Below are positions 33,966 through 50,796 of a stretch of DNA of 64,000 bases, piece by piece. Source of the stretch: an uncultured Chloroflexia bacterium (GTDB lineage Bacteria > Chloroflexota > Limnocylindria > Limnocylindrales > CSP1-4); assembly GCA_963696045.1 (NCBI GenBank), contig CAVOIR010000002.1, positions 12,562-76,561 on the forward strand, read 5' to 3'. Position numbers and translations under genes: made by a program. The notes beneath the pieces were generated by a model. That model made no database searches. It was not told the DNA's origin and was given only the letters and a program-made list of their open reading frames with translations. Position 1 is the stretch's first letter, and each line of letters starts with the position of its first letter.

Positions 33966-35854
33966 TCAGGCGCGCGGGCCCGGGACGTGGCCTTCCGGCG
34001 TGCGCCGCAGCAGGCCGCGCCGGTCAAGCTCTTCCAGCAGCGCCATGACGTACTTGCGGCTGGTGCCCGTGGCATCCCGGAGCGCCGCCGGAGTCAGTGG
34101 CGCAACCGTCGCAAGCCCGAGTGCCTGATCGCTGAGGCGTTCGAACGCGGTAGCCGACCAGGCCAGGTCACCGCCGACGACGACGATGCGACCGCTGCGT
34201 TCGAGCTCGCGGACGGCGTCCGGAGGACAGGAGGCCGCCGCTGCGGCGCTGCCCAGGGCAGGCGGGGCTGGGTCATCGAGCGCCTGCAACAGTCGTCTCA
34301 TGGCCTCCTCGCGAGCGGGATCGGGAGGCAGGGCGCCACGTCCCGGCAGGTGGACGGTCTCGCCGCTCCGCTCCAGCCGCCCGTCCGTGAGCATGCCGGC
34401 CAGCAGCGTGGTGGCTGCCTCGTCCGCCGCCGGCCGGTCGATGGACACCGACCGCCGGATGAGCGTGCTTCCGGTGCCGCGGGCGGCGCTGAGGGGCAGG
34501 CCCGCCGTTCCGGGACGCTCCCGGCCTCCAGCCTCGACGGCCGCCAGGATCGCGGCGGCGGCATCCCTCTGGACGTCCGCGGCCAGCTGGGCCCCAGCAG
34601 GTCGAGATCAGGTACCCGTGGAGCTCGATGAGAGCGGCCAGGATGGCATCTCGATCGCCCTCCTCCACGGCCGCCACGAGGCGGGTGAGGCAAAGCGCGG
34701 ACTGGCGCCGCCGCGATCGCCCGCGCGCGCGGATCGGGGTCCAGGACGATCCCGCCGGCCAGCAGCGCGGCGGGTCGTGGCCGACGCAGGACGAAGCGCT
34801 CGCCGATGGCCGTGGCGACCGGCCGATCGAGACGAAGGAGCGCCAGAGCTCGGCCGTCGGGAAGCGTCACCGCATCCCGCCCGCTCCGTCCCAGGATGGC
34901 GCCAGCCTGATCGGTGCCGATGTGGATCCGAGTCGTCGAACCATCCGGAGGAGGCCAGGCATCGTCGGGACGCCGGCCCGGCAGCGCTGCCGGCGCGTCG
35001 AGCACGACCAGGAGGCGGTCGCTGCCGACGACCGCGAGCGGGTCGTGCGCCCCATCGGCGCTGGTCACCACGAGGCCGCGTCGCAGGGACCGCTGTGCGA
35101 TGCCTGCCAGGTTCAAGGCGACGCGGCCCCCGGCTGGGCTCTCCATCACCTCGACGTCGTGGACCTCGATGCCGCGCACGCGCGCACCCAGGTCGCCGGG
35201 CTCGATCCGGACACTCTGGCCCGCCACGAGTGGCGTGCCGCGGGCGCTGCCCGTGACGACGACCCCGCGACCCCGAACGGAGAAGACGCGGTCGATGGCC
35301 ACCCAGGCGCGCTCCGGCCGAGACCGGCGCGAGCCGTCGCGCTCGACGTCATCGCGCAGAGCCGCCAGCGCCGTGCGAAGGGCTTCGAGCCCGGCGCCGC
35401 TGTTGGCCGAGACGGGCACGACCGGTGCTCCAGCCAGGGACGTGGCGGAGAGCAGGTCGGCCACGGCCGAGGCGACCTCCGCGCGCCTGGTCTCCGTCAC
35501 GAGGTCGACCTTCGTGATGGCCACCAGACCGCGCATGATGCCCATGGCGTGGAGGAGACCGAGGTGCTCGAAGGTCTGCGCCATCGGGCCATCGTCGGCA
35601 GCGACGACAAGGAGGGCGGCGTCGATCTCGCCGACCCCGACGAGCATGTTGCCCACCAGCCGGTCGTGGCCCGGCACGTCCACGTAGTCGATCTCCGGGC
35701 CTCCATCGGGCGACCCGTGGGCATAGCCGACGTCGATGGTGAGGCCGCGACGGCGTTCCTCGGGCAGGCGGTCGGCGTCGATGCCGGTCAGGGCCCGCAG
35801 CAGCGTCGTCTTGCCATGGTCGATGTGGCCGGCCGTCCCGATGACGACGGTCAC
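33966..35854 (-). CDS. selB: Selenocysteine-specific elongation factor SelB (2 frame changes near 34690 and 34440)
   Basis: GTPase motifs [37 protein letters not shown]-terminal winged-helix region in ORF 33966..34448 ([23 protein letters not shown]). The GTGA start overlaps the selA stop. Confidence 0.9.
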
Positions 35855-37236
35855 GTCCTCTTCGACCCGAGGACCCTCAGGATGGCGCCCGCGAGTGCCT
35901 CATCGGCACCCGGGTCGACGGTGCGCAGGTCCACCAGCACGGCGCCGTCCTCGATCCGGGCCACCACGCACGGGTCCCCGGTGCGCAGCGCCCTGGCGAG
36001 CCCCGGTGCGCGGCCGAGCCCGAGCCGGAGCGCCACCGAAGGCAGGGTCTGGCCCGGCAATGCACCGCCGCCCACCGCCGACCGAGCCTCGACGACCTCG
36101 ACGCCGGCCGCGCCCAGCGCGTCCAAGCCATTCACGAGCCGCTCCGCGCGCGCTCGGAGGCTGCCCACGTCGACGCCGATGGACTGCCAGACGGGGATGT
36201 CGGTGACCGCCCGCCCGGCGCGGTAGATGGCCAGCGTGGCCGCCATCGCGGCCAGCGTGGCCTTGTCGGGGCGCGTGGCGCGTGCCAGCGGGTCGCGGCG
36301 CATCCGTGTCACGAGGTCGGCGCGGCCGACGATGAGCCCCGCCTGCGGACCGCCCACGAGCTTGTCTCCCGAGAAGGTCACGATGTCGGCTCCTGCGGCC
36401 AGGCGCTCCTGCGGCGTGGGCTCGTGCTCGAGGCCGAAGCGAGTGGTATCCAGGAGTGCCCCGGAGCCGAGGTCCTCGATGAGCGCCACGCCGTGGCGGT
36501 GGGCCAGGGCGGCGAGCTCGGCCGGGTCGGGCAATTCGACGAAGCCTTCCTGGCGGAAGTTCGAGTGGTGGACCCGAAGGACGAGGGCGGCCCGACCTTC
36601 GACCAGGGGCGCTTCGTAGTCGGAGGCGCGCGTCCGATTCGTCGTCCCGACCTCGACGAGGCGTGCCCCGGCCCGACGGATGATCTCCGGGATGCGGACG
36701 CCGCCGCCGATCTCGACGAGCTCGCCGCGCGAGACGACGACGCCTTTCCGCCCGGCGAGGCCGACGGAGAGCGCGAGCGCAGCGGCGTTGTTGTTGGTGA
36801 CGAGCGCATCCTCGGCACCGGTGAGCGCGACGAGGTGCTCCTCCGCCGTCGGGTAGCGACGACCACGGCGGCCGGTCGCGCGGTCGAGCTCGAGAAGGAC
36901 TGTCCCGGCGGCCGCCCGCGACGCTGCCTCGACCGCGGCCCGCGGCCACGCCGCACGACCCAGGTTGGTGTGGACGATGACGCCGCTGGCGTTGATGACC
37001 GCGACCAGGCCCGCGCCGTCTGCACTCGCGAAGCCCGCCAGTCGCTCGACGACATCGTCGGCCAGATCCGCGGGCGACTGTGCCGCCTCACCGGCCCGGA
37101 GGCGCCGGCGCTCCTCGGTCACGACATCGCGCGCACAGGCCAGCAGCGCATCTGCATCGACCGCCGCGTCCACGCGGCGACGGACGAGGGTCAGGACCGA
37201 ATCGACGCTCGGTGGTCGTGCCTGCTGGGGAGCCAT
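35851..37236 (-). CDS. selA: L-seryl-tRNA(Sec) selenium transferase SelA
   Basis: Intact 461-aa [19 protein letters not shown]...[11 protein letters not shown]...[19 protein letters not shown] (PLP-lysine motif SGDKLxGGPQ). Confidence 0.9.
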
Positions 37237-37714
37237 CTCGGCCGATCGTAGCGCTGGACGGTCGGCCGGCGGCGGCCCATGATGACCCGAGCTGGAAGGC
37301 TGGCTGCGACAGGCCTACGCTCGGGCGTAGGGCAGCCGCGCTCGGGCGAGAAGGGCGATCAGCTGCTTGAGGGGCCTGCGAGCTGACGCGCCAGCCAACC
37401 TCGCGCACGACCCACAGCGGATGGAGCTCGCCCTCTCGAGCGACGCTCCATCCTGTGCCTGAGCCAGATCGGTGTGGCGTCCTTGCCGAGCGGACGCGTG
37501 CGGTCGTCGAGCAGGCCACCGTCCATGATCGGCACGCGCTGGAACCGCGGTGGGGCCGGGGTGTTCTGTGCCACTGCCATCTCCCTTCGCCAAGCGCACC
37601 TGACTGGGGTCTGACCGGGCACGGGGCAGACGCCGCTCACCCGAGCGGTCGGCACAGGATACAGGCACGCGCAAGCCCCTTTCCCGGCCGTTCGACCGTG
37701 CCATCCACGCTGCG

Positions 37715-37811
37715 TGGCGGGAGTGCATGGGAGTCGAACCCACCGTGCCGTACCGAGTACGCCACCACTGGTGTTGAAGACCAGGGGACCCACCGGGGCC
37801 CCTCCACTCCC
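37715..37811 (-). tRNA. selC: tRNA-Sec (anticodon UCA)
   Basis: Reverse complement: GGGAGTGGAGGGGCCCCGGTGGGTCCCCTGGTCTTCAACACCAGTGGTGGCGTACTCGGTACGGCACGGTGGGTTCGACTCCCATGCACTCCCGCCA. Hand fold gives a 6-bp D stem (GGGCCC/GGGTCC) with a 4-nt loop. The anticodon loop is CU-UCA-AC. There is a long variable arm (CGTAC/GTACG core), a TTCGA T-loop, and an encoded CCA. Confidence 0.9.
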
Positions 37812-37878
37812 CGACGTCCATGGTAGGGGCAGTCGTGGTCCAGTACGCTGTGCTCCCCACGCGGAGGAGGTCAGGACG

Positions 37879-40800
37879 TTGCGCTGCGGGAACTGCGGCA
37901 CCCAGAACGATGCGGGCCGGCGCTTCTGCGTGGAGTGCGGGACACGTCTCGCCCCTGGCTGTCCACAGTGCGGCGCGCAGAATCCCCCGGCTGCGAAGTT
38001 CTGCGGGGAGTGCGGTACGCCCCTGGCAGGGTCCGGCCAGGCCGCCGCCCCGGCCACCAGTGGGACACCCGGACCTCCTGAACGGCTCGGCCTCGCCGCG
38101 CCGCCGACGGCGGAGCGAAGGCTGGTCACGATCCTCTTCGCCGACCTCGTGGGCTTCACCCCGTTCTCCGAGGCGCGCGATCCCGAGGAGGTCCGCGAGA
38201 CCCTGACACGCTACTTCGACTTGGCGCGCGACGTGGTCGAGGTCTACGGAGGCAGTGTCGAGAAGTTCATCGGGGACGCGGTGATGGCGGTCTGGGGCAC
38301 GCCGGTCACCCACGAGGACGACGCCGAGCGCGCCGTGCGCGCCGCGCTCGACCTGCTCGACGCAGTGCGCGGCATGGGCGAGGGCCTGCAGGCCCGCGCC
38401 GGCGTGCTGACCGGCGATGCCGCGGTCACGCTCGGAGCCAGCGGCCAGGGCATGGTGGCCGGCGACCTCGTCAACACGGCGGCACGTGTGCAGGGCGTCG
38501 CGGAGCCGGGCACCGTGCTGGTCGGGGAGGCGACCATGCGCAGCGCCTCGGGGGCGGTGGCCTTCGAGGCGGCCGGCGATCGCGACCTGAAGGGCAAGGC
38601 CTCGCCCGTCCCGGTCTGGCGCGCTCTGCGCGTCGTCGCGGAGCGCGGAGGCCGCGGCCGCAGCGACGGGCTCGAGGCACCGTTCGTGGGACGGGACATC
38701 GAGTTCCGTCTGCTCAAGGAGCTCTTCCACGCCTCCGGCCGCGAGAAGCGCGTGCGACTCATCTCCATCACTGGGCAGGCCGGCATCGGCAAGAGCCGCC
38801 TCGCCTGGGAGCTGGAGAAGTACCTCGATGGCGTCGTCGAGACCGTCTGGTGGCACCACGGCCGCTCGCCGGCCTACGGCAGCGGCATCACCTTCTGGGC
38901 CCTGGGCGAGATGGTGCGCTGGCGCTGCGGTCTCGCCGAGAGTGATGACGAGCCCACCACCCGAGCGCGAGTCGGCGAGACCGTGATCCGCTTCGTCCCC
39001 GAGGGCTCCGAGCGAGCCTGGATCGAGTCAGCGTTGCTGACGCTCCTCGGCGTGGGAGATGCCGCCGCCACCCCGGAGCAGCTCTTCCCGGCCTGGCGAT
39101 CGTTCTTCGAGCACATCGCCCGGCAGGGCGCGACGATCCTCGTCTTCGAAGACCTCCAATGGGCGGATCCCGGCCTCCTCGCCTTTCTCGACCATCTCAT
39201 GGGCTGGAGCCACGACCTGCCCATCTGCATCGTGACCCTGGCCCGACCGGAGCTCCTCGAGGTCCACCCCGGCTGGGGCGCCTCCGTGCGCGGCTTCACC
39301 AGCATGTCCCTCGAGCCGCTCGACCGGGAGAGCATGGTGAGTCTGCTGGCGGGCCTCGTGCCCGGCCTGCCGCGGGCCACCACCGACCGCATCATCGAGC
39401 GCGCCGACGGCATCCCGCTCTACGCCGTCGAGACCGTGCGCATGCTCGTCGCCGACGGCCGCCTCGTGCTCGAGGACGGCGTCTACCACCCCACCGCAGA
39501 CCTGTCGGCGCTGGAGGCGCCGGAGAGCCTCCGCTCCCTCGTCGGCTCCCGCCTGGATGCCCTCGACCCACCGGACCGCCAGCTGCTCCAGAGCGCGGCC
39601 GTGCTGGGGCACAGCTTCGCCACCGAGGGTCTCGTCGCGGTCACCGGCAGCAGCGCCGAAGAGCTCGAGTCGCGTCTCTGAGGGCCCTCATCCGGCGCGA
39701 GATGCTCACGCACCGTGCAGACCCACGCTCACCGGAGCGCGGCCAGTACGCCTTCGCGCAGGAGATCCTCCGCGAGGTCGCCTACGAGACGCTGGCCCGC
39801 GACGACCGACGGACGCTGCACCTCGCCGCCGCTCGCTACTTCGAGAGCCTTGACACGGACGAGCTGGCCGGCGCGCTCGCCGCCCAGTACCAGGCCGCGC
39901 ATCGCAACTCGCGACCGGGGCCCGAGACCGACGCCCTCGCGATCCAGGCCCGGCTGGCCCTCAAGGCGGCCGCGGACCGGGCCATGAACCTGGGCTCCAC
40001 CGAACAGGCAAAACGGCTCTTCGAAGATGCCTGCGGACTGGCGACGGACCCGGGCGAGCAGGCCGATCTCCTGGAGTCGGCCGGCAAGGCTGCCTCGATG
40101 GCTGGCAGCACCGACGCGCTGGACCTGCTCGATCGCGCCATCTCCATCTACGAGGCAGCGGGTCGTCGCAGCGACGCGGCGCGCGCGACGGCGAGCCAGC
40201 TGAGTACGCTGCTCCATGAGGGCTGGCAGCTCGAGGCGGCCGTGGCCAAGGCGCATACGGCAGCCGATCAGTTCGCGGATCTGGGTCTCGACGAGGGCCT
40301 CGTGAAGATCCTCGCGCAGCTGGCTCGCATCGAGATGCTGCGCCAGGTGGACCTGCCACTCGCCATCGCCACGGCTGACCGCGCGTTGGCGATGGCCGAG
40401 CAGCTCGACCTCGTCCCGGTCGTGGCAGACCTCCTCGTCACCCGAGGGACCGCTCTGAGCAGCCTCGGCCGGGCCCTCGAGGGACTCGGGACGATCGAGG
40501 CCGGACGACGACTGGCGGCTGCTGAGGGCCTGCTCGACGTCGAGCATCGAGCGCTGCTCAACATGTCCGGGTCGCTCGCCGACCGCGATCCACGTGCCTT
40601 CCTGGAAGCCTCTCGCGCGTCGCTCGACCTGGCTCGTCGAGAGGGCTCCAGACCCGCTGCGGCCCTGGCCGCCAGCAACGTGGCGGAGGCGGCGCGCACC
40701 ACCGGCGATTGGGACCTGGCTCTCGCCGAGCTGCGTCGGAGGTCGAGGTCGGCGCCGGCGACGAGCTCAGGATGGTCGAGGAGGGTCTGGTGCTGCTCGA

Positions 40801-41449
40801 GACCGAGCGCGGGGAGGATCGCTCCGCGGCAGCGGCAGCCCTGATCGCGAACGCTGAATCGCGTGTCGCTCTCGGCGAGCCCGTTTGGCAGACGAGGCTT
40901 GACGTCTTTCGCGCCAACCTGGCACTCCCTGCCGGCAGGTACCGAGAGGCCGCCGTCGGGTTCCTGTCGGCCGGCCGTCGGGATGCCTTCAATGCCACCA
41001 ACCTCTTCGCCTCGGCGTCCCTGGCCTCGATGCTCGGCCGGGACGCCGCCGGGACGGAAGCGGCGCTCGCCGGCTCGAGGCGACGGGTTCGCATGGCAGG
41101 ATCGTGAAGCTCGATCGAAAGCGGGCACGCGCGGCACTCGCCGCCCTCGGCGGTCACCAGTCGGAGGCCTTGAACGGCTTTCGCGAGGTCCTCGAAGATC
41201 TGCACAGGCTGGACATCGCGCTTCCGATCGCCATGACGGGACTGGTGATGTGCACGCTCCTCGACCCGTCCGACCGCGGAGGTGGTGGCCGCGGCCGACG
41301 AGGCTCGCACCATCTTCAAGCGGCTGGGTGCTCGGGCCTGGCTCGATCGCCTCGACGAGGCCCTGGGACGCGGACCGGGGGAGCCGCGCACAGCGTCCAC
41401 CTCGCAGGCGCCATCCGCTGTCGTCCCGAGCGCGGCCTCCGCCTCCTGA
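37879..41449 (+). CDS. Zinc-ribbon / class III adenylate-guanylate cyclase / AAA(STAND) ATPase / TPR-like multidomain protein (~4 frame changes)
   Basis: TTG start follows GGAGGAGG. Double zinc ribbon: CGNCGTQNDAGRRFCVECG...CPQCGAQNPPAAKFCGECG. Cyclase: RLVTILFADLVGFT...KFIGDAVMAVWG...VAGDLVNTAARV. P-loop: ISITGQAGIGKSRL. Long helical repeat C-terminus. Frame joins are near 39675, 40740, 41100 and 41275. Confidence 0.85.
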
Positions 41450-41457
41450 CGCGAACG

Positions 41458-42494
41458 ATGCCGTCGCTGCGGCTGACCGACCTGACCGCCTGCGGTGGCT
41501 GCGCCGCGAAGCTCGGTGCCGACGTGCTCGCGGAAGCCCTCGCGGGCCTGGGCGCCGGCGCAGTCGACCCGGGGCTCCTCGTCGGCCTCGATCATCCCGA
41601 TGACGCCGCCGTGTACCGCCTGACTGACGACCTGGCGGTCATCGGGACGCTCGACTTCTTCCCGCCGCTGGTCGATGACCCGCGCACGTTCGGCGAGATC
41701 GCGGCCGCCAACGCGCTCTCCGACGTCTTCGCCATGGGCGGCCGCGTGCTCTTCGCGATGGCCATCGCAGCACTCCCTGAGGACCTGCCGCGCGACGCCA
41801 TGGCGGCCATCTTCGAGGGCGCCGCGACCAAGGTCCGGGAGGCAGGCGGCACCCTCGCCGGAGGGCACACCATCCGTGACACGGAGCCCAAGTACGGCCT
41901 CGCCGTGGTGGGCGTCGCGCACCCGGACCGGCTCTTCCGAAAGGGCGGCGCCCGGGAGGGGGACGTGCTCCTCCTCACGAAGCCCCTTGGGACCGGGCTC
42001 GCTCATCAGCGGCCAGCGCCAGGGCCGGACCGCTGCGGCACACCTGGAGGCGGCCATCGAGCAGATGCGGCGCCTGAACCGCACGGCGGCCGAGGTCCTC
42101 GCCGAGCCATCGGGTGCATGGCGCGACCGACGTCACGGGCTTCGGCCTCCTCGGTCACGGCCTCGAGATGGCGCGGGCATCCGGGGTCCGCCTCGTCTTC
42201 GATGCGGCGGCGCTGCCCGCGCTCGATGGCGCGCTCGAGCTCGCACGCGCCGGCCTGGAGACCGGCGGCGCCACGGCACAACCGCCGCTTCGTCGCCGAC
42301 CGAGCTGTCGATCGCCGATGGGGTCGCGGCCGAGCTCGTCACCCTGGCGCACGACCCGCAGACGAGCGGTGGCCTGCTTGCGGCCGTGCCGCGTGAGACG
42401 GCGCCCGACGTCCTCGCGGACCTCCGCGCCGTGCGGCGATGAGGCCTGGATCATCGGTGAGGTCGTCAGCGGTTCGGGCATCGCCCTCGCCTGA
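41458..42494 (+). CDS. selD: Selenide, water dikinase SelD (Cys form; ~5 frame changes)
   Basis: [20 protein letters not shown] (active-site Cys/Lys loop). DDAAVYRL...[64 protein letters not shown]. Confidence 0.9.
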
Positions 42495-42575
42495 CGCCGC
42501 CGGGTAGACTCGCGGACAGGGCAGGCGGGACCCGGCGTTCGTCCGGGGACGCCACCGCAGGAGGTTCACGCCAGC

Positions 42576-44478
42576 GTGAAGCCATACCGCCGGCTGACCC
42601 AGCCCCTCGTGCGCGACACGCGGGGCGGAGCGCTTCGGACCGCGACCTGGGACGAGGCGCTCGACCGGACCGTCGCCGGCTTCCGTGCCGCAGCCGCGGC
42701 GCACGGAGCCGACACGTTCGGGATCTTCAGCTGCAGCAAGGCGACCAACGAGGTCAACTTCGCGGCCCAGAAGTTCGCCCGCACGGTCCTGGGCAGCAAC
42801 TACATCGACAGCTGCAACCGCACCTGACACGCCCCGAGTGTCGCCGGTCTGGCGACCGTGTTCGGTGCCGGTGGGGGGACCAGCTCATATCGTGAGGTCG
42901 AGGAGACGGACCTCGTGCTCCTCTGGGGCAGCAACGCCCGGGAGACGCATCCGATCTTCTTCCATCACCTCCTGCGCGGCGTCCGGAACGGCGCCCGCGT
43001 CATCGTCGTCGACCCGCGACGCACCAGCTCGGCCGAGTGGGCCGACCTCTGGCTCGGGCCTCGACGTGGGCTCGGACATCGCGCTGGCCAACGCCGTCGG
43101 CCGCGAGATCATCCACGCCGGCCTGGCGAACGAGGCCTTCATCGAGCGCGCCACGAGCGGCTTCGAGGCCTACCGCGAGGCCGTCGAGCCCTGCACGCTC
43201 GAGTGGGCCGAGCGGGAGACCGGCGTCCCGGCCGAGGCCATCCGCGAGCTGGCCCACGCCTACGCCACGGCCGACCGGGCCATCCTCTGCTGGACCCTCG
43301 GCATCACCGAGCACCACAACGCGGTCGACAACGTCCTGGCGCTCATCTCCCTGGCCCTCCTGACCGGGCACGTCGGCCGCTACGGCAGCGGGCTCAACCC
43401 GCTGCGCGGCCAGAACAACGTCCAGGGCGGCGGCGACATGGGCGCCCTGCCCGACCGGCTGCCGGGCTTCCAGCACGTCGAGAACGACGAGCTGCGGCGG
43501 CGCTTCGAGGCGGCCTGGGGCGTGGCCATCCCGCCCCACCGCGGCCGCCACCTCTCGCGAGATGTTCGACGCCATGGAGCGCGACGAGCTCCAGGCGCTC
43601 TACGTCATCGGCGAGAACCCGGTCCAGTCGGAGGCCGACCAGGCCCGCGCTCGGCACCTGCTCGAGAGCCGCGAGCTCCTCGTCGTCCAGGACCTCTTCC
43701 TGACGAAGACGGCCGAGCTGGCCGACGTGGTGCTGCCGGCGGCCGCGGCCTGGGCCGAGTCCGAGGGCACGGTCACCAACTCCGAGCGGCGCGTGCAGCG
43801 GGTGCGCAAGGCGCTGGAGCCGCCCGGCGAGGCCCGCGACGACCTCTGGATCATCTTCGAGCTGGCGCGCCGCATGGGCCACGACTGGGGGCCGCCGGAC
43901 GCCGAGGCCGTCTGGGACGAGCTGCGCTCGCTCTCGCCGGTCCACGCCGGCATGAGCTACGCGCGGCTCGAGGCCCTGGGCGGCCTCCAGTGGCCCTGCT
44001 ACGACGAGTCGCATCCGGGCGAGCTCTTCCTCCACTCGCGGCTCTGGGAGGACCCGGTGCCCGGGCAGCGCGCGCCCTTCGTGCCGGTCGTCCACGACCC
44101 GCCGGTGGACCGCCTGGACGACGACTACCCCATCCGGCTGACGACCGGCCGGCGCCTCGACTCCTACAACACCGGCGTCCAGACGGCCGGCTATCGCTCG
44201 CCGCTGCGCCGCGGCGAGAGCGCTCGACATGAGCCCGGAGGACATCGAGCGCCTCGGGGCTCGCGGACGGGGAGCGGTCGTGCGCGTCGTGTCGCGGCGC
44301 GGCTCGGTGGAGGTGCCGGTCCGCATCGACCCCGGGCTGCGGCCGGGCTCGACCTTCATGACCCTCCACTTCCAGGACGACGTGGCCACGAACCTGCTGA
44401 CCATCGACGCCACCGACCCCAAGTCCGGCACGGCCGAGTTCAAGGCCACGGCCATCCGCGTCGAGCGGCTCGGCCTGA
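42576..44478 (+). CDS. fdhA: Formate dehydrogenase alpha, molybdopterin catalytic fragment, selenocysteine-containing (in-frame TGA at 42825-42827; ~3 frame changes; 3' end uncertain)
   Basis: GTG follows GCAGGAGG. KPYRRLTQPLVR...FSCSKATNEVNFAAQKFARTVLGSNYIDSCNRT-TGA-HAPSVAGLATVFGAGGGTSSY (the canonical FdhF-type Sec motif). LLWGSNARETHPIFF. ...NPLRGQNNVQGGGDMG. ...TNSERRVQRV. ...TAEFKATAIRVERL. As given, the last frame stays open into the GYD gene. A TGA at 44476 in the +1 frame is my guess for the true stop. Confidence 0.85.
42825..42860 (+). other. Sec-recoding site: UGA plus a SECIS-like hairpin
   Basis: TGA at 42825-42827 is in frame between two halves of one protein (42576 and 42858 share a frame). 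13 nt downstream, GTCGCC-GGTCT-GGCGAC (42840-42856) forms a 6-bp stem. Its GGUCU apical loop resembles the GGUC loop of the E. coli fdhF SECIS. Confidence 0.75.
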
Positions 44479-44660
44479 CGCGCTCGCCGAGCGAGCGCCG
44501 CAGCGAGCGGCTGCGACGACCATGGTCAGGAGGGTCGCCACCAGCCTCGTTGGCGACCGCCGGCGCGCGCTTGACAAGCGCGCCGGGCGGGCCACGATAT
44601 CGCGAAGCAGCGGACGACCCCGCCGAGCGCTGCAGCCCATGGCAAGCCGGAGGACGCCCC

Positions 44661-44981
44661 ATGCCGCACTACATGTTCAAGGCCTCGTACACCAGGGAGG
44701 GCCTGCAGGGCATCCTCAAGGAGGGCGCTGCCTCGCGGCTCGACGTCGTGCGCAAGCTGGCCGAGAGCCTCGGCGGCACGATGGAGGTGACCTACTGGGC
44801 CTTCGGCGAGGATGACTTCATCACCATCATGGAGCTGCCCGACAACGCGGCCGCTGCTGCGGCGGCCTCCACGGTCACGGCGTCCGGCGCCGCCTCGATC
44901 ACCACGACCGTGCTGCTCACGGCCGCGGATGTCGATGCGGCGCGCGGTCGGACGGTGCAGTACCGCACGCCCGGCGCGTAG
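44661..44981 (+). CDS. GYD-domain protein
   Basis: ATG follows GGAGGA. MPHYMFKASYTREGLQGILKEGAASRLDVVRKLAESLGGTMEVTYWAFGEDDFITIMELPDN is the GYD family pattern. Confidence 0.8.
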   Translation: MPHYMFKASYTREGLQGILKEGAASRLDVVRKLAESLGGTMEVTYWAFGEDDFITIMELPDNAAAAAAASTVTASGAASITTTVLLTAADVDAARGRTVQYRTPGA

Positions 44982-44999
44982 GGACGCTGACCGACCGGC

Positions 45000-45600
45000 T
45001 TGGACCTGCACATCGTCGGGCCGCTCGCCTCCCCTGCCGAGCGGGCGGCCATCGATGCCGTCCTCGATCCGGAGATCGGCCCTCCAGGCGCCTGGACCGG
45101 CGGACGGCGAGACGCCGGGCCTGAGGCCCACGCCACGCGGGGCGGGGCTCGGGCTCGCTCCCGCCGGGACCTCCTGCTGCCGGCCCTGCACGCGCTCCAG
45201 GCGCAGGCCGGCTGGATCAGCCAGCCCGGCCTGAACCACATCTGCCGGCGCCTGTCGGTGCCACCCGCGGAGGCCTACGGCGTGGCCGCCTTCTACGCGC
45301 TCTTCTCGACGCGGCCACGTCCGCCGGCCGTGGCGCACGTCTGCGACGACATCGCCTGCCGCCTCGCCGGCGCGGAGGAGCTCTGCGGCCGCCTCGAGCG
45401 TGACGTCGGGCCCGAGGGTGAGGCCTGGTCGAGGAGCCCATGCCTGGGACGCTGTGAGGCAGCGCCCGCGGCCCTCGTGACCTTCGCGGCGGGCACCGAG
45501 CGCGCGGTGAGCCTGGCGCCAGCCGACGAGGCAAGCATCCGGAGCTCCCTGACGGGACGGCTGGACACCGGCGCCGGCAGGGGCTCGACGCCTGGCCCCC
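45000..45600 (+). CDS. NuoE/FdsG-like [2Fe-2S] thioredoxin-like subunit (possibly fused to the following NuoF-like gene)
   Basis: LLPALHALQAQAGWISQPGLNHICRRLSVPPAEAYGVAAFYALF...HVCDDIACRLAG...SPCLGRCEAAPAALV (Cys ligand pattern of NuoE). Its sensible reading ends where the NuoF-like frame starts. Confidence 0.75.
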
Positions 45601-46860
45601 GTGCCCCAGTCCGGCCAGGCCGAGCTTCGGCTCCTCGCGAGGGTCGGCATCGTGGATCCCGGGTCGCTCGACGACTACCAGGTACACGGCGGCTATCGGG
45701 CCCTGCCGCGGACGCTCGCCATCGGGCGCGAGGCAGCCATCGCCGAGGTCACGGCCGCGGGCCTCCTCGGGCGCGGCGGAGCGGCCTTCCCCACGGGCCG
45801 CAAGTGGACCGCCGTGGCTGCCCAGCCCGCGCAGCCCCACTACGTCGTCTGCAACGCCGACGAATCGGAGCCCGGCACCTTCAAGGACCGGGTCCTCCTC
45901 GAGGGAGACCCGTTCGCGGTCGTGGAGGCCATGACCATCGAGGCCTTCGCCGTCGGCGCCGCGCAGGGCTACCTCTACGTTCGCGGCGAGTATCCCGAGG
46001 CGGAGGCTTCCGTGTCCCGCGCCATCGCAGCTGCGCGCGCGGCGGGCCTGCTCGGTCCGGACATCCTGGGCTCCGGCCTGGTCTTCGACATCGAGCTGCG
46101 GCGCGGCGCCGGGGCCTACATCTGCGGCGAGGAGACGGCCCTCTTCGCCTCGATCGAGGGTCACCGCGGCGAGCCCCGCAACAAGCCGCCCTATCCCGTT
46201 CAGTCGGGCCTCTTCGGCAAGCCGACCGCGGTCAACAACGTCGAGACGCTCGCCAACGTGCTGCTCATCCTGGGCGAAGAGGGCGGGGCAGCGGCCTACC
46301 GCGCCATCGGCACGGCCGAGTCGAGCGGCCCCAAGCTGTTCTGCCTGTCCGGGCACGTGGCGCGACCGGGCGTCTACGAGGTGCCCTTCGGGACCACGTT
46401 GCGCGAGCTCATCGACCTGGCCGGCGGCGTGCCCGGCGACCGAGCCATCCGGGCCGTGCTGCTCGGCGGTGTGGCCGGCACGTTCGTCGGGCCGGAGGCG
46501 CTCGAGACGCCGCTCACCTTCGAGGGCACGCGTGCCATCGGCGCCTCCCTGGGCTCGGGCGTCGTCATGGTCTTCGACGAGACGGTCGACCTGCTCGGCA
46601 CGCTGCGCCGCATCGCCACCTTCTTCCGTGACGAGTCGTGCGGCCAGTGCGTGCCCTGCCGGATCGGCACCCAGCGCCAGATGGAGGTCCTCGACCGCCT
46701 CGCCCTCACGGATCCGGGCTCGCCCATCCGCGGGGGCCTCGCCGCGCTCATCACCGACCTCGGCCAGGGCATGCGCGACGCGTCGATCTGCGGCCTCGGC
46801 CAGACCGCCTCGGCGGCCATCGAGTCCGCCCTGCGGCAGCCCGGGATGGTGGCCCCGTGA
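45601..46860 (+). CDS. NuoF/FdsB-like NAD- and FMN-binding [4Fe-4S] subunit
   Basis: Intact 419-aa ORF. GLLGRGGAAFPTGRKW, VVCNADESEPGTFKDR, GAGAYICGEETALFASIEG, ESCGQCVPCRIG...ICGLGQTA. Confidence 0.9.
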   Translation: MPQSGQAELRLLARVGIVDPGSLDDYQVHGGYRALPRTLAIGREAAIAEVTAAGLLGRGGAAFPTGRKWTAVAAQPAQPHYVVCNADESEPGTFKDRVLLEGDPFAVVEAMTIEAFAVGAAQGYLYVRGEYPEAEASVSRAIAAARAAGLLGPDILGSGLVFDIELRRGAGAYICGEETALFASIEGHRGEPRNKPPYPVQSGLFGKPTAVNNVETLANVLLILGEEGGAAAYRAIGTAESSGPKLFCLSGHVARPGVYEVPFGTTLRELIDLAGGVPGDRAIRAVLLGGVAGTFVGPEALETPLTFEGTRAIGASLGSGVVMVFDETVDLLGTLRRIATFFRDESCGQCVPCRIGTQRQMEVLDRLALTDPGSPIRGGLAALITDLGQGMRDASICGLGQTASAAIESALRQPGMVAP

Positions 46861-46972
46861 CCGAGTCGGCCCGGGGCCTTGGGCCAGCCGGCGATCCTGC
46901 GCCAGCATGGGATCCGGGGCCCGTGTACTACGCGCCGCCGGCGCGCTCGAGCGTCATCCCGCGGCGCGCCCG

Positions 46973-47892
46973 ATGAAGACACGGACGCCGCATCCTGCCG
47001 ATCACGATCGATGGCGTCGCCGCTGTCCGTCCCCGAGGGTTCGACGATCCTCGAGGCCTGCCGCGAGCAGGGCATCGACACGCCCACGCTGTGCACGCTC
47101 GAGACCCTCCGTCCGGTGAACGCCTGCCGCCTGTGCGTCGTGGAGGTGGCCGGCTCCCGCGCCCTCGTGCCGGCCTGCTCGCGGCGCGTCGAGGCGGGCA
47201 TGGAGATCGCCACGGACAGCCCGCGGGTGCGCCACTCGCGCCGCCTCGTCCTGGAGCTGCTGGCCTCGTCGGTCGATGTCACGCTGGCCGGACCGCGCAC
47301 ACCTGACGGGACGATCGCCGCCTGGATGGAGCGCTACGGCGCCGACCCCGGCCGCTTCGGCCCGGACGTGGCGACGGTGGCCCAGCCCGTCATCGTCGAC
47401 AACGAGCTCTACGTGCGCGACTACGCGCGCTGCATCCTCTGCTACAAGTGCGTCGAGGCCTGCGGAGTGGACGCTCAGAACACCTTCGCCATCGCGGTCG
47501 CCGGTCGCGGCTTCGAGGCCCACATCGCGACCGAGTACGAGGTCCCCCTCCCGGCGTCCGCCTGCGTGTACTGCGGCAACTGCATCGGCGTCTGCCCCAC
47601 CGGCGCGCTGATGTCGCGCCGCGAGCACGAGATGCGTGCGGCAGGCACCTGGGACGAGGCCGCCCAGTCGGTGACGAACACCATCTGCCCATACTGCGGC
47701 GTGGGCTGCCAGCTCGACGTGCACGTCCAGGACGGCGCCGTCGTGAAGGTCAGCTCACCGCTCGATTCATCGGTCACGGGCGGGCACCTCTGCATCAAGG
47801 GCCGCTTCGGCTTCGACTTCGTGGGCGGTGCCCGGCGCGGAGTGAGAAGCCCTGCTCAGGCCGAGCCGTACCCCACGACGGGAATCTCATAG
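46973..47892 (+). CDS. Formate dehydrogenase alpha, N-terminal Fe-S fragment (NuoG-like 2Fe-2S, two 4Fe-4S, MopB 4Fe-4S), truncated; 1-2 frame changes at the 5' end
   Basis: ITIDGV/LSVPEGSTILEACREQGIDTPTLC...NACRLCVVEV. CILCYKCVEAC. CVYCGNCIGVCPTGAL. ICPYCGVGCQLDVHV...GHLCIKGRFGFDFV. After that come 22 unrelated residues and a stop. The fragment lacks the molybdopterin domains found at 42576. Confidence 0.8.
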
Positions 47893-48243
47893 GCAGCGTA
47901 GTCGGCCGCGTTCCGCGTGACGACCGTGGCGCCCAGGCGCTGCGCGAGAGCCGCGATGAGGGCGTCACCCAGGCTGCGGCCCGCGGACCTACCGGCCTGG
48001 CGACGCAGCTCGCCGGCGCTCGCGGCTCCGTCCGGGTCCAGTCGCGACGTACTCGAGCGCCGTCAGGAACCGGCGGATGACGTCGCGCTCCTCGTCCGTG
48101 CCACCAGACAGAGCCTCGCAGGTGACCACGTCGCAGGTGTAGAGCAGGCCTGTCTCCTCGAAGCACGCTTCGACGACGTCCTTGATGCCCGGATACTCGA
48201 GCGACCAGTCGATGGCGACGGTCGTGTCGAACAGGAAGCTCAC
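47856..48243 (-). CDS. vapC: VapC-type PIN-domain toxin (one frame change near 48050)
   Basis: MSFLFDTTVAIDWSL...LYTCDVVTCEALSG in ORF 47989..48243. It continues in the adjacent frame as LDPDGAASAGELRRQAGRSAGRSLGDALIAALAQRLGATVVTRNAADYAAYEIPVVGYGSA-stop. Confidence 0.8.
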
Positions 48244-48508
48244 CGGCGTCGACCCCGGATCCGATCCTCGCGAGCCTGGTCCTCACGGAGCGCCCGGAGC
48301 CACCGATAGGCCTCGTCCGGGTCCTTCCACTGGGACCGCCCGACCGCCGCGCCAACGTCTCCTCGAAGACCGTGCGCATGCGGTCGCGCTTGAGCCGGGC
48401 CCGGACGGCCTCGGCCACGTAGGCCGACCGACCACGCGGGCCGGCCAACGCATCGATCTCGCCGATGACCTCGGACGGCAGCGTCACATTCGTGCGGACC
48501 ATGCCCAT
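48240..48508 (-). CDS. vapB: Ribbon-helix-helix VapB-type antitoxin (one frame change near 48355)
   Basis: GGAGGA then ATG. MGMVRTNVTLPSEVIGEIDALAGPRGRSAYVAEAVRARLKRDRMRTVFEETL. The C-terminus WKDPDEAYRWLRALREDQ... is in the adjacent frame. The stop overlaps the vapC ATG (ATGA). Confidence 0.65.
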
Positions 48509-49017: not shown

Positions 49018-50796
49018 ATGAAGCCGCTGGAAGAGCCCTTCGCGTCGATCGTCGCTGGTCGTCCGGCCGAGATCGACCTGCGTGGCGTGCGCCTTCTCAG
49101 CGCGCGGCTCTTCACCAAGGACATGGCCTTCCGTCAGGACGAGCGCGAGGCCTTCGGGCTGCGCGGATTGCTGCCCGACCGGGTCCAGAGCATCGAGGAG
49201 CAGGTGCAGCTCGAATGGGAGCACGTCGGGCGCAAGGACGATGCTCTCGAGAAGTACATCGGCCTGGCGGCGCTCCAGGACCGCAACGCGACGCTCTTCT
49301 ACCGGCTCCTGGCCGACCATCTCGAAGACCTCATGCCCATCGTCTACACGCCGACGGTTGGCCAGGCCTGCCAGCAGTTCAGCCACATCATCCGGCGCAC
49401 GCGCGGCATCTGGATCACACCGGCCGACATCGACCGCATCCCGCAGATCCTGCGCAACTCCCCGTTCGCGGACGTACGGCTCATCGTCGTGACCGACAAC
49501 GAGCGCATCCTCGGCCTCGGTGACCAGGGCGCCGGGGGCATGGGCATCCCCATCGGCAAGCTGGCGCTCTACTCGGCCACGAGTGGCCTCCATCCATCGC
49601 TGACGCTTCCCGTGTCGCTCGACGTCGGCACGGACAACCGCCAGCTGCTCGGAGACCCGCTCTACATCGGCTACCGCTCGCGGCGCCTCCGAGGACCCGC
49701 CTACCAGGAGCTCGTCGAGGCCTTCGTGCGGGGCGTGAACGAGACGTGGCCCGGCTGCATCATCCAGTGGGAGGACTTCAAGGGCCCCAACGCGCTGCGC
49801 ATCCTCGACCACTTCCGCGACCGAACGCCCAGCTTCAACGACGACGTGCAGGGCACGGCTGCGGTCGCCCTGGCCGGCATCCATGGCGCGGCTCGCCTCC
49901 TCGGTCGCGAGCTCGGCGACCTGCGCTTCGTGCTGGCGGGCGCAGGCGCGGCGGGGTCGGCATCGCTCGCCTCCTGCACCTTGCGCTGGCCGAGGCCGGC
50001 GTGTCGACCGAGCACGCCCACGGCCAGATCGCGCTCCTCGACTCGCACGGGCTCGTCCACGGTGGCCGGACCGACCTCGACGAGTTCAAACGCTCGCTGG
50101 CGGTCCCGGAGGAGACGGTCGGGCGCCTGGGCCTGACGCTCGAGGGCGACGACCATCGGCGTCTCCGGGAGGTCGTGGCCGCGGTGCGGCCAGACATCCT
50201 CATCGGCACGACCGGCCAGCCGGGGTCGTTCGACGAGCCGGTCATCCGGGCCATGGCCGAGGGCACTGAGCGCCCCGTCGTCTTCGCGCTCTCGAACCCG
50301 TCGAGCCGGGTCGAGGCGACGCCCGACGACGTCCTGGCCTGGAGCGACGGGCGCGCCATCGTCGCCACGGGCAGCCCCTTTCCCGAGCGCTTCCTGGGAG
50401 GGCCGGGATCGCCTCGTGGGTCAGGCCAACAACGTCTTCATCTTCCCGGGCGTCGGCCTCGGAGCGGTGGTGGCCGAGGCGCGCACGATCACCGAGCGCA
50501 TGTTCCTGGAGGCCGCCCGCGCGCTGACCGCCCAGGTCACCGATGAGCGCCTCACGGGCGGTGCCCTGTACCCTCCGGTAGAGGCGCTGGCCGCCATCTC
50601 CCGTGAGGTGGCGATCGCTGTGGCCTCGGAGGCGACACGGTCAGGCGTGGCCGGCATCGGGCCGCACGTGGACCTGCCCGCCGCTGTCGACGAGGCTATG
50701 TGGCACCCCGCCTACGTGCCCTACATCCGTTCGCGCGCCGCGGTCCACCGCGACGAGCTCTACGCCGCCCACGAGGCCGTCGGGCTGCCGAGCTGA
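49018..50796 (+). CDS. NAD(P)-dependent malic enzyme (2 frame changes near 49940 and 50400)
   Basis: [109 protein letters not shown]. Confidence 0.9.

Follow-up and report, generated by a model that had tools for sequence, protein, structure and literature searches.

The stretch of DNA analysed here, referred to as the window, comprises 64,000 nucleotides (nt) of contig CAVOIR010000002.1 from an uncultured Chloroflexota bacterium. Its G+C content is about 72%, and the G+C content of the third codon positions gives a clear track of the reading frame. The region from 42.5 to 47.9 kb holds four genes, all on the forward strand, that form an operon for a putative formate dehydrogenase: the gene of a molybdopterin catalytic subunit, a gene for a GYD-domain protein, a gene for a NuoE- and NuoF-like subunit, and a gene for an iron-sulfur (Fe-S) subunit that carries what is normally the N-terminal part of the catalytic chain. 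An earlier sequence-only reading of this DNA had noticed that the alpha subunit is thus encoded in two parts at opposite ends of the operon, and had regarded this as an unusual local rearrangement, a circular permutation of the operon. The gene order and strand were confirmed. The local rearrangement was not, since the same split, at the same residue, is found in loci labelled with several phyla.

The two parts of the alpha subunit

The catalytic gene begins, as had been proposed, with a GTG codon preceded by a GGAGG motif, and GGAGG or GGAG motifs similarly precede the catalytic start in many relatives. In the intact orthologue of locus L046, the domains PF00384 and PF01568 are found with E-values of 6.9e-69 and 2.1e-28, respectively; the window copy is 76-83% identical to this orthologue, depending on the segment. 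The active-site motifs U-H (U being selenocysteine, Sec) and R-G-Q are present, as is the stretch ...NPLRGQNNVQGGGD... The combination U/C-H and R-G-Q is that of class I (PMC8808070). The catalytic protein is without an Fe4S4 domain of its own.

At the other end of the operon, Pfam supports the domain content that had been read from the Fe-S gene, namely Fer2_4, Fer4 and Molybdop_Fe4S4, corresponding to a [2Fe-2S] cluster, two [4Fe-4S] clusters and, at the C-terminus, the sequence CPYCGVGC...GHLCIKGRFGFDFV. The Molybdop_Fe4S4 domain (CPYCGVGC...C-I-K-G) usually opens the catalytic subunit and here belongs to the Fe-S protein. This protein also matches HoxU (NF005745, residues 33-240) and NuoG, as well as N-terminal models of [FeFe]-hydrogenases. 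Its start had been placed at 46973; the actual start is a GTG further upstream, which shares 4 nt with the stop of the NuoF-like part (GTGA), an overlap that suggests translational coupling. Three frame changes (46965, 46993 and 47019) all fall before residue 60. In relatives, the protein ends in ...GRFGFDFVGGARRE directly before the stop codon, and in close relatives in ...FDFVGGARRE. The previously proposed end just after GRFGFDFV is therefore sound; the 30-residue tail that runs on to 47892 in the window is due to a private 1-nt insertion near 47840, and removing it restores the true stop at 47846.

The relation between the two proteins becomes apparent when both are placed on a contiguous alpha subunit. 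Of the 672 positions of TIGR01591 (formate dehydrogenase alpha subunit), 1-51 match the C-terminus of the Fe-S protein and 53-672 the catalytic protein, which covers only these positions and, at 651.6 bits, stays below the cut-off of 666.25. On FdsA of Rhodobacter capsulatus, the Fe-S protein aligns with residues 7-303 and the catalytic protein with 308-931, residue 7 of the latter corresponding to FdsA residue 308. The break had been described as lying inside the MopB domain and not at a domain linker; it coincides exactly with the Pfam boundary between PF04879 and PF00384, at positions 51/53 of TIGR01591. Judged from these coordinates, the two pieces tile canonical FdsA with neither gap nor overlap, and the cut lies at a domain boundary yet inside the functional catalytic unit.

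The diaphorase-like subunit encoded between them was characterized on its L001 orthologue, which has a [2Fe-2S] thioredoxin-like domain, a domain for flavin mononucleotide (FMN) and NADH, an SLBB domain and a [4Fe-4S] domain, and which matches TIGR01959 (450.9 bits), PF01257, PF01512 and PF10589. In L083 and L001 it is a single fused NuoE-NuoF protein of 519-577 amino acids (aa). The window copy has a frame change at the linker between the E and F parts, at about 45558-45597.

Conservation of the split and of the gene order

Homologues were collected as the 120 best matches for each of the two parts. In addition, a scan with one genome per species gave at least 593 matching stretches, of which the best 80 loci were mapped; catalytic starts were examined at 60 loci and the Fe-S alignment comprised 16 members. 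All of the 120 best Fe-S homologues (70-100% identity, 274-392 aa) contain Fer2_4, Fer4 and Molybdop_Fe4S4, and the Molybdopterin domain is found in none of them. The aligned members stop 3-10 residues past GRFGFxFV, except for two with longer tails, and in the Fe4S4 motif all 16 retain the four FS0 cysteines and the lysine. On the catalytic side, none of the 120 best matches is fused: all are pieces of about 542 aa that follow the UGA, as the in-frame UGA causes the gene to be called in two pieces of 83 and about 542 aa. Uninterrupted Sec-containing catalytic open reading frames (ORFs) of 629-648 aa are found in metagenome-assembled genomes (MAGs) built from short reads. Among 1.8 billion cluster representatives, relatives of fused length (770-980 aa) occur only at 45% identity or less to the Fe-S part; members of the split clade are at least 65% identical to the Fe-S query.

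Within the best 80 loci, the order catalytic gene, spacer of 0.1-2.5 kb, NuoE-NuoF gene and Fe-S gene, on one strand, is kept in every locus with sufficient upstream DNA. The NuoE-NuoF gene is present in 78 of the 80, which are those extending far enough upstream. The spacer between the catalytic and NuoE-NuoF genes measures about 0.1 kb in loci labelled Acidobacteriota or Dormibacterota and up to about 2.5 kb in loci labelled Chloroflexota. In L001 (3805-6090) and L083 (5446-7486), the catalytic gene is separated from the other operon genes by an opposite-strand gene resembling trehalose-phosphate synthase/phosphatase. The GYD gene was detected by tblastn only in the window, L002, L018, L020 and L075, all labelled Chloroflexota; in the gene tables it is called in L002 and L083, and not in L001. 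The labels of the 80 loci include Chloroflexota/Limnocylindria, Dormibacterota, Acidobacteriota, Eremiobacterota, Actinomycetota, Binatia and others, at least six phyla. Three operon-bearing loci (L013, L073 and L012) carry the odd labels Micrarchaeaceae archaeon, Saccharimonadales and Verrucomicrobiia; these are probably mis-binned contigs of the source MAG collection.

All of the 60 catalytic genes examined have their own start codon, 3-8 codons before RLTxPLVR, and several have an in-frame stop no more than 10 codons upstream of it. The codons E-V-H-A-S just upstream of the catalytic GTG had been taken for a relic of the residues that normally follow FDFV. Apart from the window, only its nearest relative, L002, has this stretch, which overlaps the ribosome-binding site; in other lineages the corresponding stretch is unrelated and often has an in-frame stop 1-10 codons upstream, and the relic was rejected.

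The comparison of the homology and synteny of relatives, which the sequence-only reading had proposed as a check, gave the same result at close range. The relatives L083, L002 and L001, on independent contigs, have selD, the catalytic gene, the NuoE-NuoF gene, the Fe-S gene and the malic-enzyme gene in the same order, and no contiguous fdsA was found among close relatives. Their N-terminal fragments are 90% (L002) and 84% (L001) identical to that of the window, and that of L083 falls within the window's own 90% protein cluster. Because the same split and order recur in every informative locus, a local rearrangement was rejected; on these comparisons the split architecture is conserved and not an event in this genome.

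Selenocysteine signals

The catalytic gene has an in-frame TGA within the motif SCNRT-U-HAPSV, and this TGA occupies the same position in 60 of 60 catalytic loci. A selenocysteine insertion sequence (SECIS) hairpin follows 12 nt downstream. Its six pairs are paired in 100% of the cells of an alignment of 57 distinct sequences, with compensatory double changes at two of the pairs and wobble changes at two, and the loop is invariant. The Rfam model SECIS_3 gives a weak match (42822-42880, 19.2 bits), far under its gathering score, and for this reason the assignment rests on the covariation. A longer lower helix reaching over the UGA was considered and found unsupported, with 79.8% of cells paired and zero compensatory changes. 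The genes selA, selB, tRNA-Sec and selD are all located within 8 kb 5' of the operon and form a selenocysteine gene island. In many related loci selD also adjoins the operon.

Frame changes in the window

The catalytic gene of the window is not a single ORF. Frame changes occur at 43056, 43559 and 44220, with an additional local pair of 1 and 2 nt at 44255/44289. A further 1-nt insertion at 44471, private to the window, abolishes the stop codon, which in relatives follows ...RLA; as written, the last catalytic segment crosses the 180-nt spacer in frame into the GYD gene (ORF 44229-44981). Overall, the window copy has at least 10 single-base insertions or deletions (indels) in 5.3 kb. In an alignment of the window, L083 and L002, each indel is private to one contig, and each of the three contigs has a different set of indels in the same genes.

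When the window is compared with L002, the catalytic gene has a ratio of nonsynonymous to synonymous substitution rates (dN/dS) of 0.10, the Fe-S gene one of 0.11 and the NuoE-NuoF gene one of 0.18-0.20, a pattern of purifying selection. For the catalytic gene the low value holds in each of the three frames assigned, and rises above 2.8 in the wrong frames. Unrelated neighbours, including the malic-enzyme gene, selD and the C-terminal part of selB, are frameshifted too, which suggests that the frame changes are a property of the assembly rather than of the operon. The frame track hints at similar switches across all 64 kb, and in the region studied there is approximately one indel per 0.5-0.7 kb. 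The relatives are Flye-style contigs, and the named MAGs closest to the window come from the Microflora Danica set, which was produced from Nanopore reads only, with Flye assembly and one Medaka polish (PMC12313526). We consider it quite likely that the frame changes are long-read consensus errors and that the operon is probably intact in the organism.

Neighbouring genes

The features of the locus and its surroundings are listed in Table 1. The slot 3' of the Fe-S gene is variable: it contains a PIN gene in L002, a DinB gene in L001 and nothing in L083. A vapBC cassette and a lower-G+C scar had been reported at the end of the Fe-S fragment and taken as marks of a breakpoint. Both are present in the window, but the vapBC-like pair is one of these variable inserts, and the dip in G+C is modest (0.67-0.69) and reaches across the conserved malic-enzyme gene. 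Between tRNA-Sec and selD there is a large regulator-like ORF on the forward strand (37714-40844), with a frame change near 39680; its N-terminus is like a zinc-ribbon/cyclase and is accompanied by a long helical repeat region.

Table 1. Coordinates of the formate dehydrogenase operon and adjacent features in the window.
Feature	Position	Strand	Evidence or remark
selB	34298..35854	-	Translation read by eye; GTPase motif AGHIDHGKT
selA	35851..37236	-	Translation read by eye
tRNA-Sec (selC)	37715..37813	-	ARAGORN; Rfam RF01852, 68.7 bits
selD (selenophosphate synthetase), directly 5' of the operon	41467..42494	+	Several frame changes
GGAGG ribosome-binding site, 11 nt 5' of the catalytic GTG	42560..42564	+	Sequence
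Catalytic subunit, PF00384 Molybdopterin and PF01568 Molydop_binding, about 635 aa	42576..44478	+	Frames, Pfam, TIGR01591; end after indel correction
UGA read as Sec, in SCNRT-U-HAPSV	42825..42827	+	In frame; conserved position
SECIS apical hairpin GUCGCC-GGUCU-GGCGAC, 12 nt 3' of the UGA	42840..42856	+	Covariation
GYD-domain protein, 106 aa	44661..44981	+	PF08734, E = 2.9e-22
NuoE-NuoF-like diaphorase subunit	45000..46860	+	Domains read on the L001 orthologue
Fe-S subunit, NuoG/HoxU-like module and Molybdop_Fe4S4	46857..47846	+	Pfam, TIGR01591; ORF as written extends to 47892
vapBC-like pair (PIN toxin, ribbon-helix-helix antitoxin)	47989-48500	-	Itself frameshifted; between the Fe-S and malic-enzyme genes
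Malic-enzyme gene	49018-50796		Frame changes at about 49940 and 50390

Interpretation and alternatives

Our interpretation, with a probability of roughly 0.78, is that the locus encodes an unexceptional representative of a widely distributed clade of formate dehydrogenases that are cytoplasmic, NAD(H)-linked and Sec-containing and use molybdenum or tungsten (Mo/W), and in which the alpha subunit consists of two polypeptides whose genes lie at the two ends of the operon. The operon would consist of the catalytic gene, an optional variable spacer (here with the GYD gene), the NuoE-NuoF fusion and a translationally coupled Fe-S subunit, and its products would assemble into a three-subunit cytoplasmic complex. 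The UGA would be decoded by the neighbouring selABCD machinery by means of the SECIS hairpin. Formate oxidation would take place in the catalytic subunit, at its Sec-ligated Mo/W-bis-pterin site, and the electrons would pass to the proximal [4Fe-4S] cluster, supplied in trans by the C-terminal Molybdop_Fe4S4 domain of the Fe-S subunit. From there they would travel through the two [4Fe-4S] clusters and the [2Fe-2S] cluster of the same subunit to the [4Fe-4S] cluster of the NuoF part, to FMN and, presumably, to NAD+. The conserved lysine of the C-x-K-G motif would sit on the same Fe-S-subunit domain as the proximal cluster. A paper from 2025 (PMC12176258) describes the lysine by the proximal cluster as highly conserved and as located between the cluster and the Mo cofactor.

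Several points weigh against this interpretation. We infer the association of the two alpha pieces from their tiling and their co-occurrence. The count of phyla is approximate because several MAG labels look mis-binned, and the cross-phylum identity of about 65-75% may stem from horizontal transfer rather than from great age. As written, the catalytic, NuoE-NuoF and Fe-S ORFs of the window are all interrupted. Most of the indels are insertions of G or C away from long homopolymers, unlike the classic error of Nanopore sequencing, and the Nanopore origin of the window assembly is itself presumed. The number and placement of the indels lend some weight to the alternative that the architecture is conserved and this copy is a true pseudogene cluster, decaying by frameshifts that hit all three enzyme genes and abolish two stop codons. 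We regard such decay as unlikely, because the catalytic dN/dS of 0.10 is maintained in the frame segments on either side of every shift and because the sister contigs L002 and L083 have their own private indels in the same genes. A different possibility is that the two proteins are not parts of a single alpha subunit: the Fe-S protein would then carry electrons in the manner of HoxU/NuoG, with an Fe4S4 domain that is vestigial, like cluster N7 of some NuoG proteins, and the catalytic protein would function either with no proximal cluster or with a different partner. The HoxU and hydrogenase matches of the Fe-S protein would fit, as would the slightly higher score of the catalytic part against FdhF-type enzymes than against FdsA. 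Such a division of labour is nevertheless improbable, given that the Fe4S4 domain keeps its four cysteines and its lysine unchanged across the clade, that the pieces abut exactly on both the FdsA and the TIGR01591 coordinates, and that they are always encoded in the same operon, with no other Fe4S4-domain gene nearby.

The explanation offered originally, a lineage-specific circular permutation of a contiguous fdsA by tandem duplication and loss of the outer parts, or else a mis-assembly or collapsed repeat at the junctions, has the formal merit that duplication and loss would give precisely the order C-terminal part, E, F, N-terminal part, with both breakpoints coinciding at one residue. It is nonetheless extremely improbable. 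Every informative locus of the 80 genomes, one per species, shows the same order and breakpoint, as do three related contigs that are independent of one another, the Fe-S stop and the catalytic start are both conserved, and the vapBC neighbour is variable. A search for a repeat linking the two junctions, or for a leftover fragment, returned only short chance matches at either junction, and no second copy of the operon was found within the window. Of the three outcomes that had been envisaged, a functional two-polypeptide Sec-dependent formate dehydrogenase is the only one that agrees with the evidence; a dead rearranged operon and a mis-assembly do not. The sites at 42.5 and 47.9 kb need no further scrutiny as junctions of a rearrangement or mis-assembly; the genuine quality problem of this sequence lies in its scattered single-base indels.

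A broader proposal is that an abundant soil clade supplies the proximal [4Fe-4S] cluster and the adjacent lysine in trans from a diaphorase-side Fe-S subunit, that this arrangement arose by an ancient operon-level permutation, and that it is undescribed in the literature searched and unrecognised by annotation models. Taken as a whole, we put this at slightly less than even odds. An ancient permutation of the operon, for instance by duplication and loss, is a possible origin of the clade that would have left no trace in the window.

The two-polypeptide alpha subunit, if true, would place the first electron-transfer cluster of a Mo/W-bis-pterin enzyme on one polypeptide and its metal cofactor on another, and a natural Fe4S4/pterin split of this kind would test the modularity of the first electron-transfer step of formate dehydrogenases. 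In soil MAGs the Fe-S subunit bears source labels such as "2Fe-2S iron-sulfur cluster-binding protein", "HndD" and "YjgC". Because the Fe-S subunit receives generic labels and the catalytic gene is broken at the UGA when called, the oxidation of formate and the use of selenium may be under-recognised in Chloroflexota, Acidobacteriota, Dormibacterota and Eremiobacterota. These observations should interest specialists in formate dehydrogenases and selenoproteins and be useful in annotating soil MAGs.

Comparison with known systems

The best solved match to the Fe-S subunit is the NAD+-dependent Mo formate dehydrogenase FdsABG(D) of R. capsulatus and Cupriavidus necator (6TG9/6TGA, 9WXB), with E-values of approximately 1e-47 to 1e-49. 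It is also a strong match to the catalytic part, and both systems have in common [2Fe-2S] and several [4Fe-4S] clusters, a bis-pterin and NuoE/NuoF-like partners. FdsA, however, is one chain of 958 aa, encoded after fdsG and fdsB (fdsGBACD), whereas in the present operon the chain is cut between about residues 303 and 308, the catalytic part comes first, and NuoE and NuoF are fused. The metal ligand also differs, being Cys in FdsA and, as predicted, Sec here. The tungsten enzyme FoDH1/Fdh1AB of Methylorubrum extorquens (7E5Z, 7VW6) is NAD-linked and encoded by two genes; it has an alpha subunit that resembles NuoG and a beta subunit in which NuoE and NuoF are fused, as they are here. In contrast, its alpha subunit is a fused chain (989-995 aa), with modest identity to the parts described in this work.

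The top solved matches to the catalytic part are enzymes of the FdhF/FdhH type, namely FdhH of Escherichia coli (1AA6), FdhF of the hydrogen-dependent carbon dioxide reductase (HDCR) of Thermoanaerobacter kivui (7QV7), and 7BKB_D. These proteins bear their own N-terminal Fe4S4 domain (residues 1-60), whereas the catalytic protein of the window begins at the equivalent of about residues 55-60. E. coli FdhH has a Sec-His active site and a SECIS element with a similar loop sequence. With the catalytic part, the FdhF/FdhH structures score 463-472 bits and FdsA 423-427 bits; the Fe-S part is nearest to the N-terminus of FdsA. These different nearest matches may be a sign that the clade is of mosaic origin. 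The Fe-S subunit also matches HoxU and the N-terminal module of NuoG, to which it adds the C-terminal Molybdop_Fe4S4 domain.

All of the closest solved enzymes hold the Fe4S4 and pterin domains on one chain, and neither a description nor a solved structure of the present split was found in the open-access literature. The enzyme is of a familiar kind, and the arrangement of its subunits is conserved and apparently undescribed. FwdB/FwdD of formylmethanofuran dehydrogenase offer a precedent for distributing a Mo/W-bis-pterin catalytic unit over two polypeptides; in that enzyme, the separate piece is the C-terminal pterin-capping domain and not the N-terminal Fe4S4 domain.

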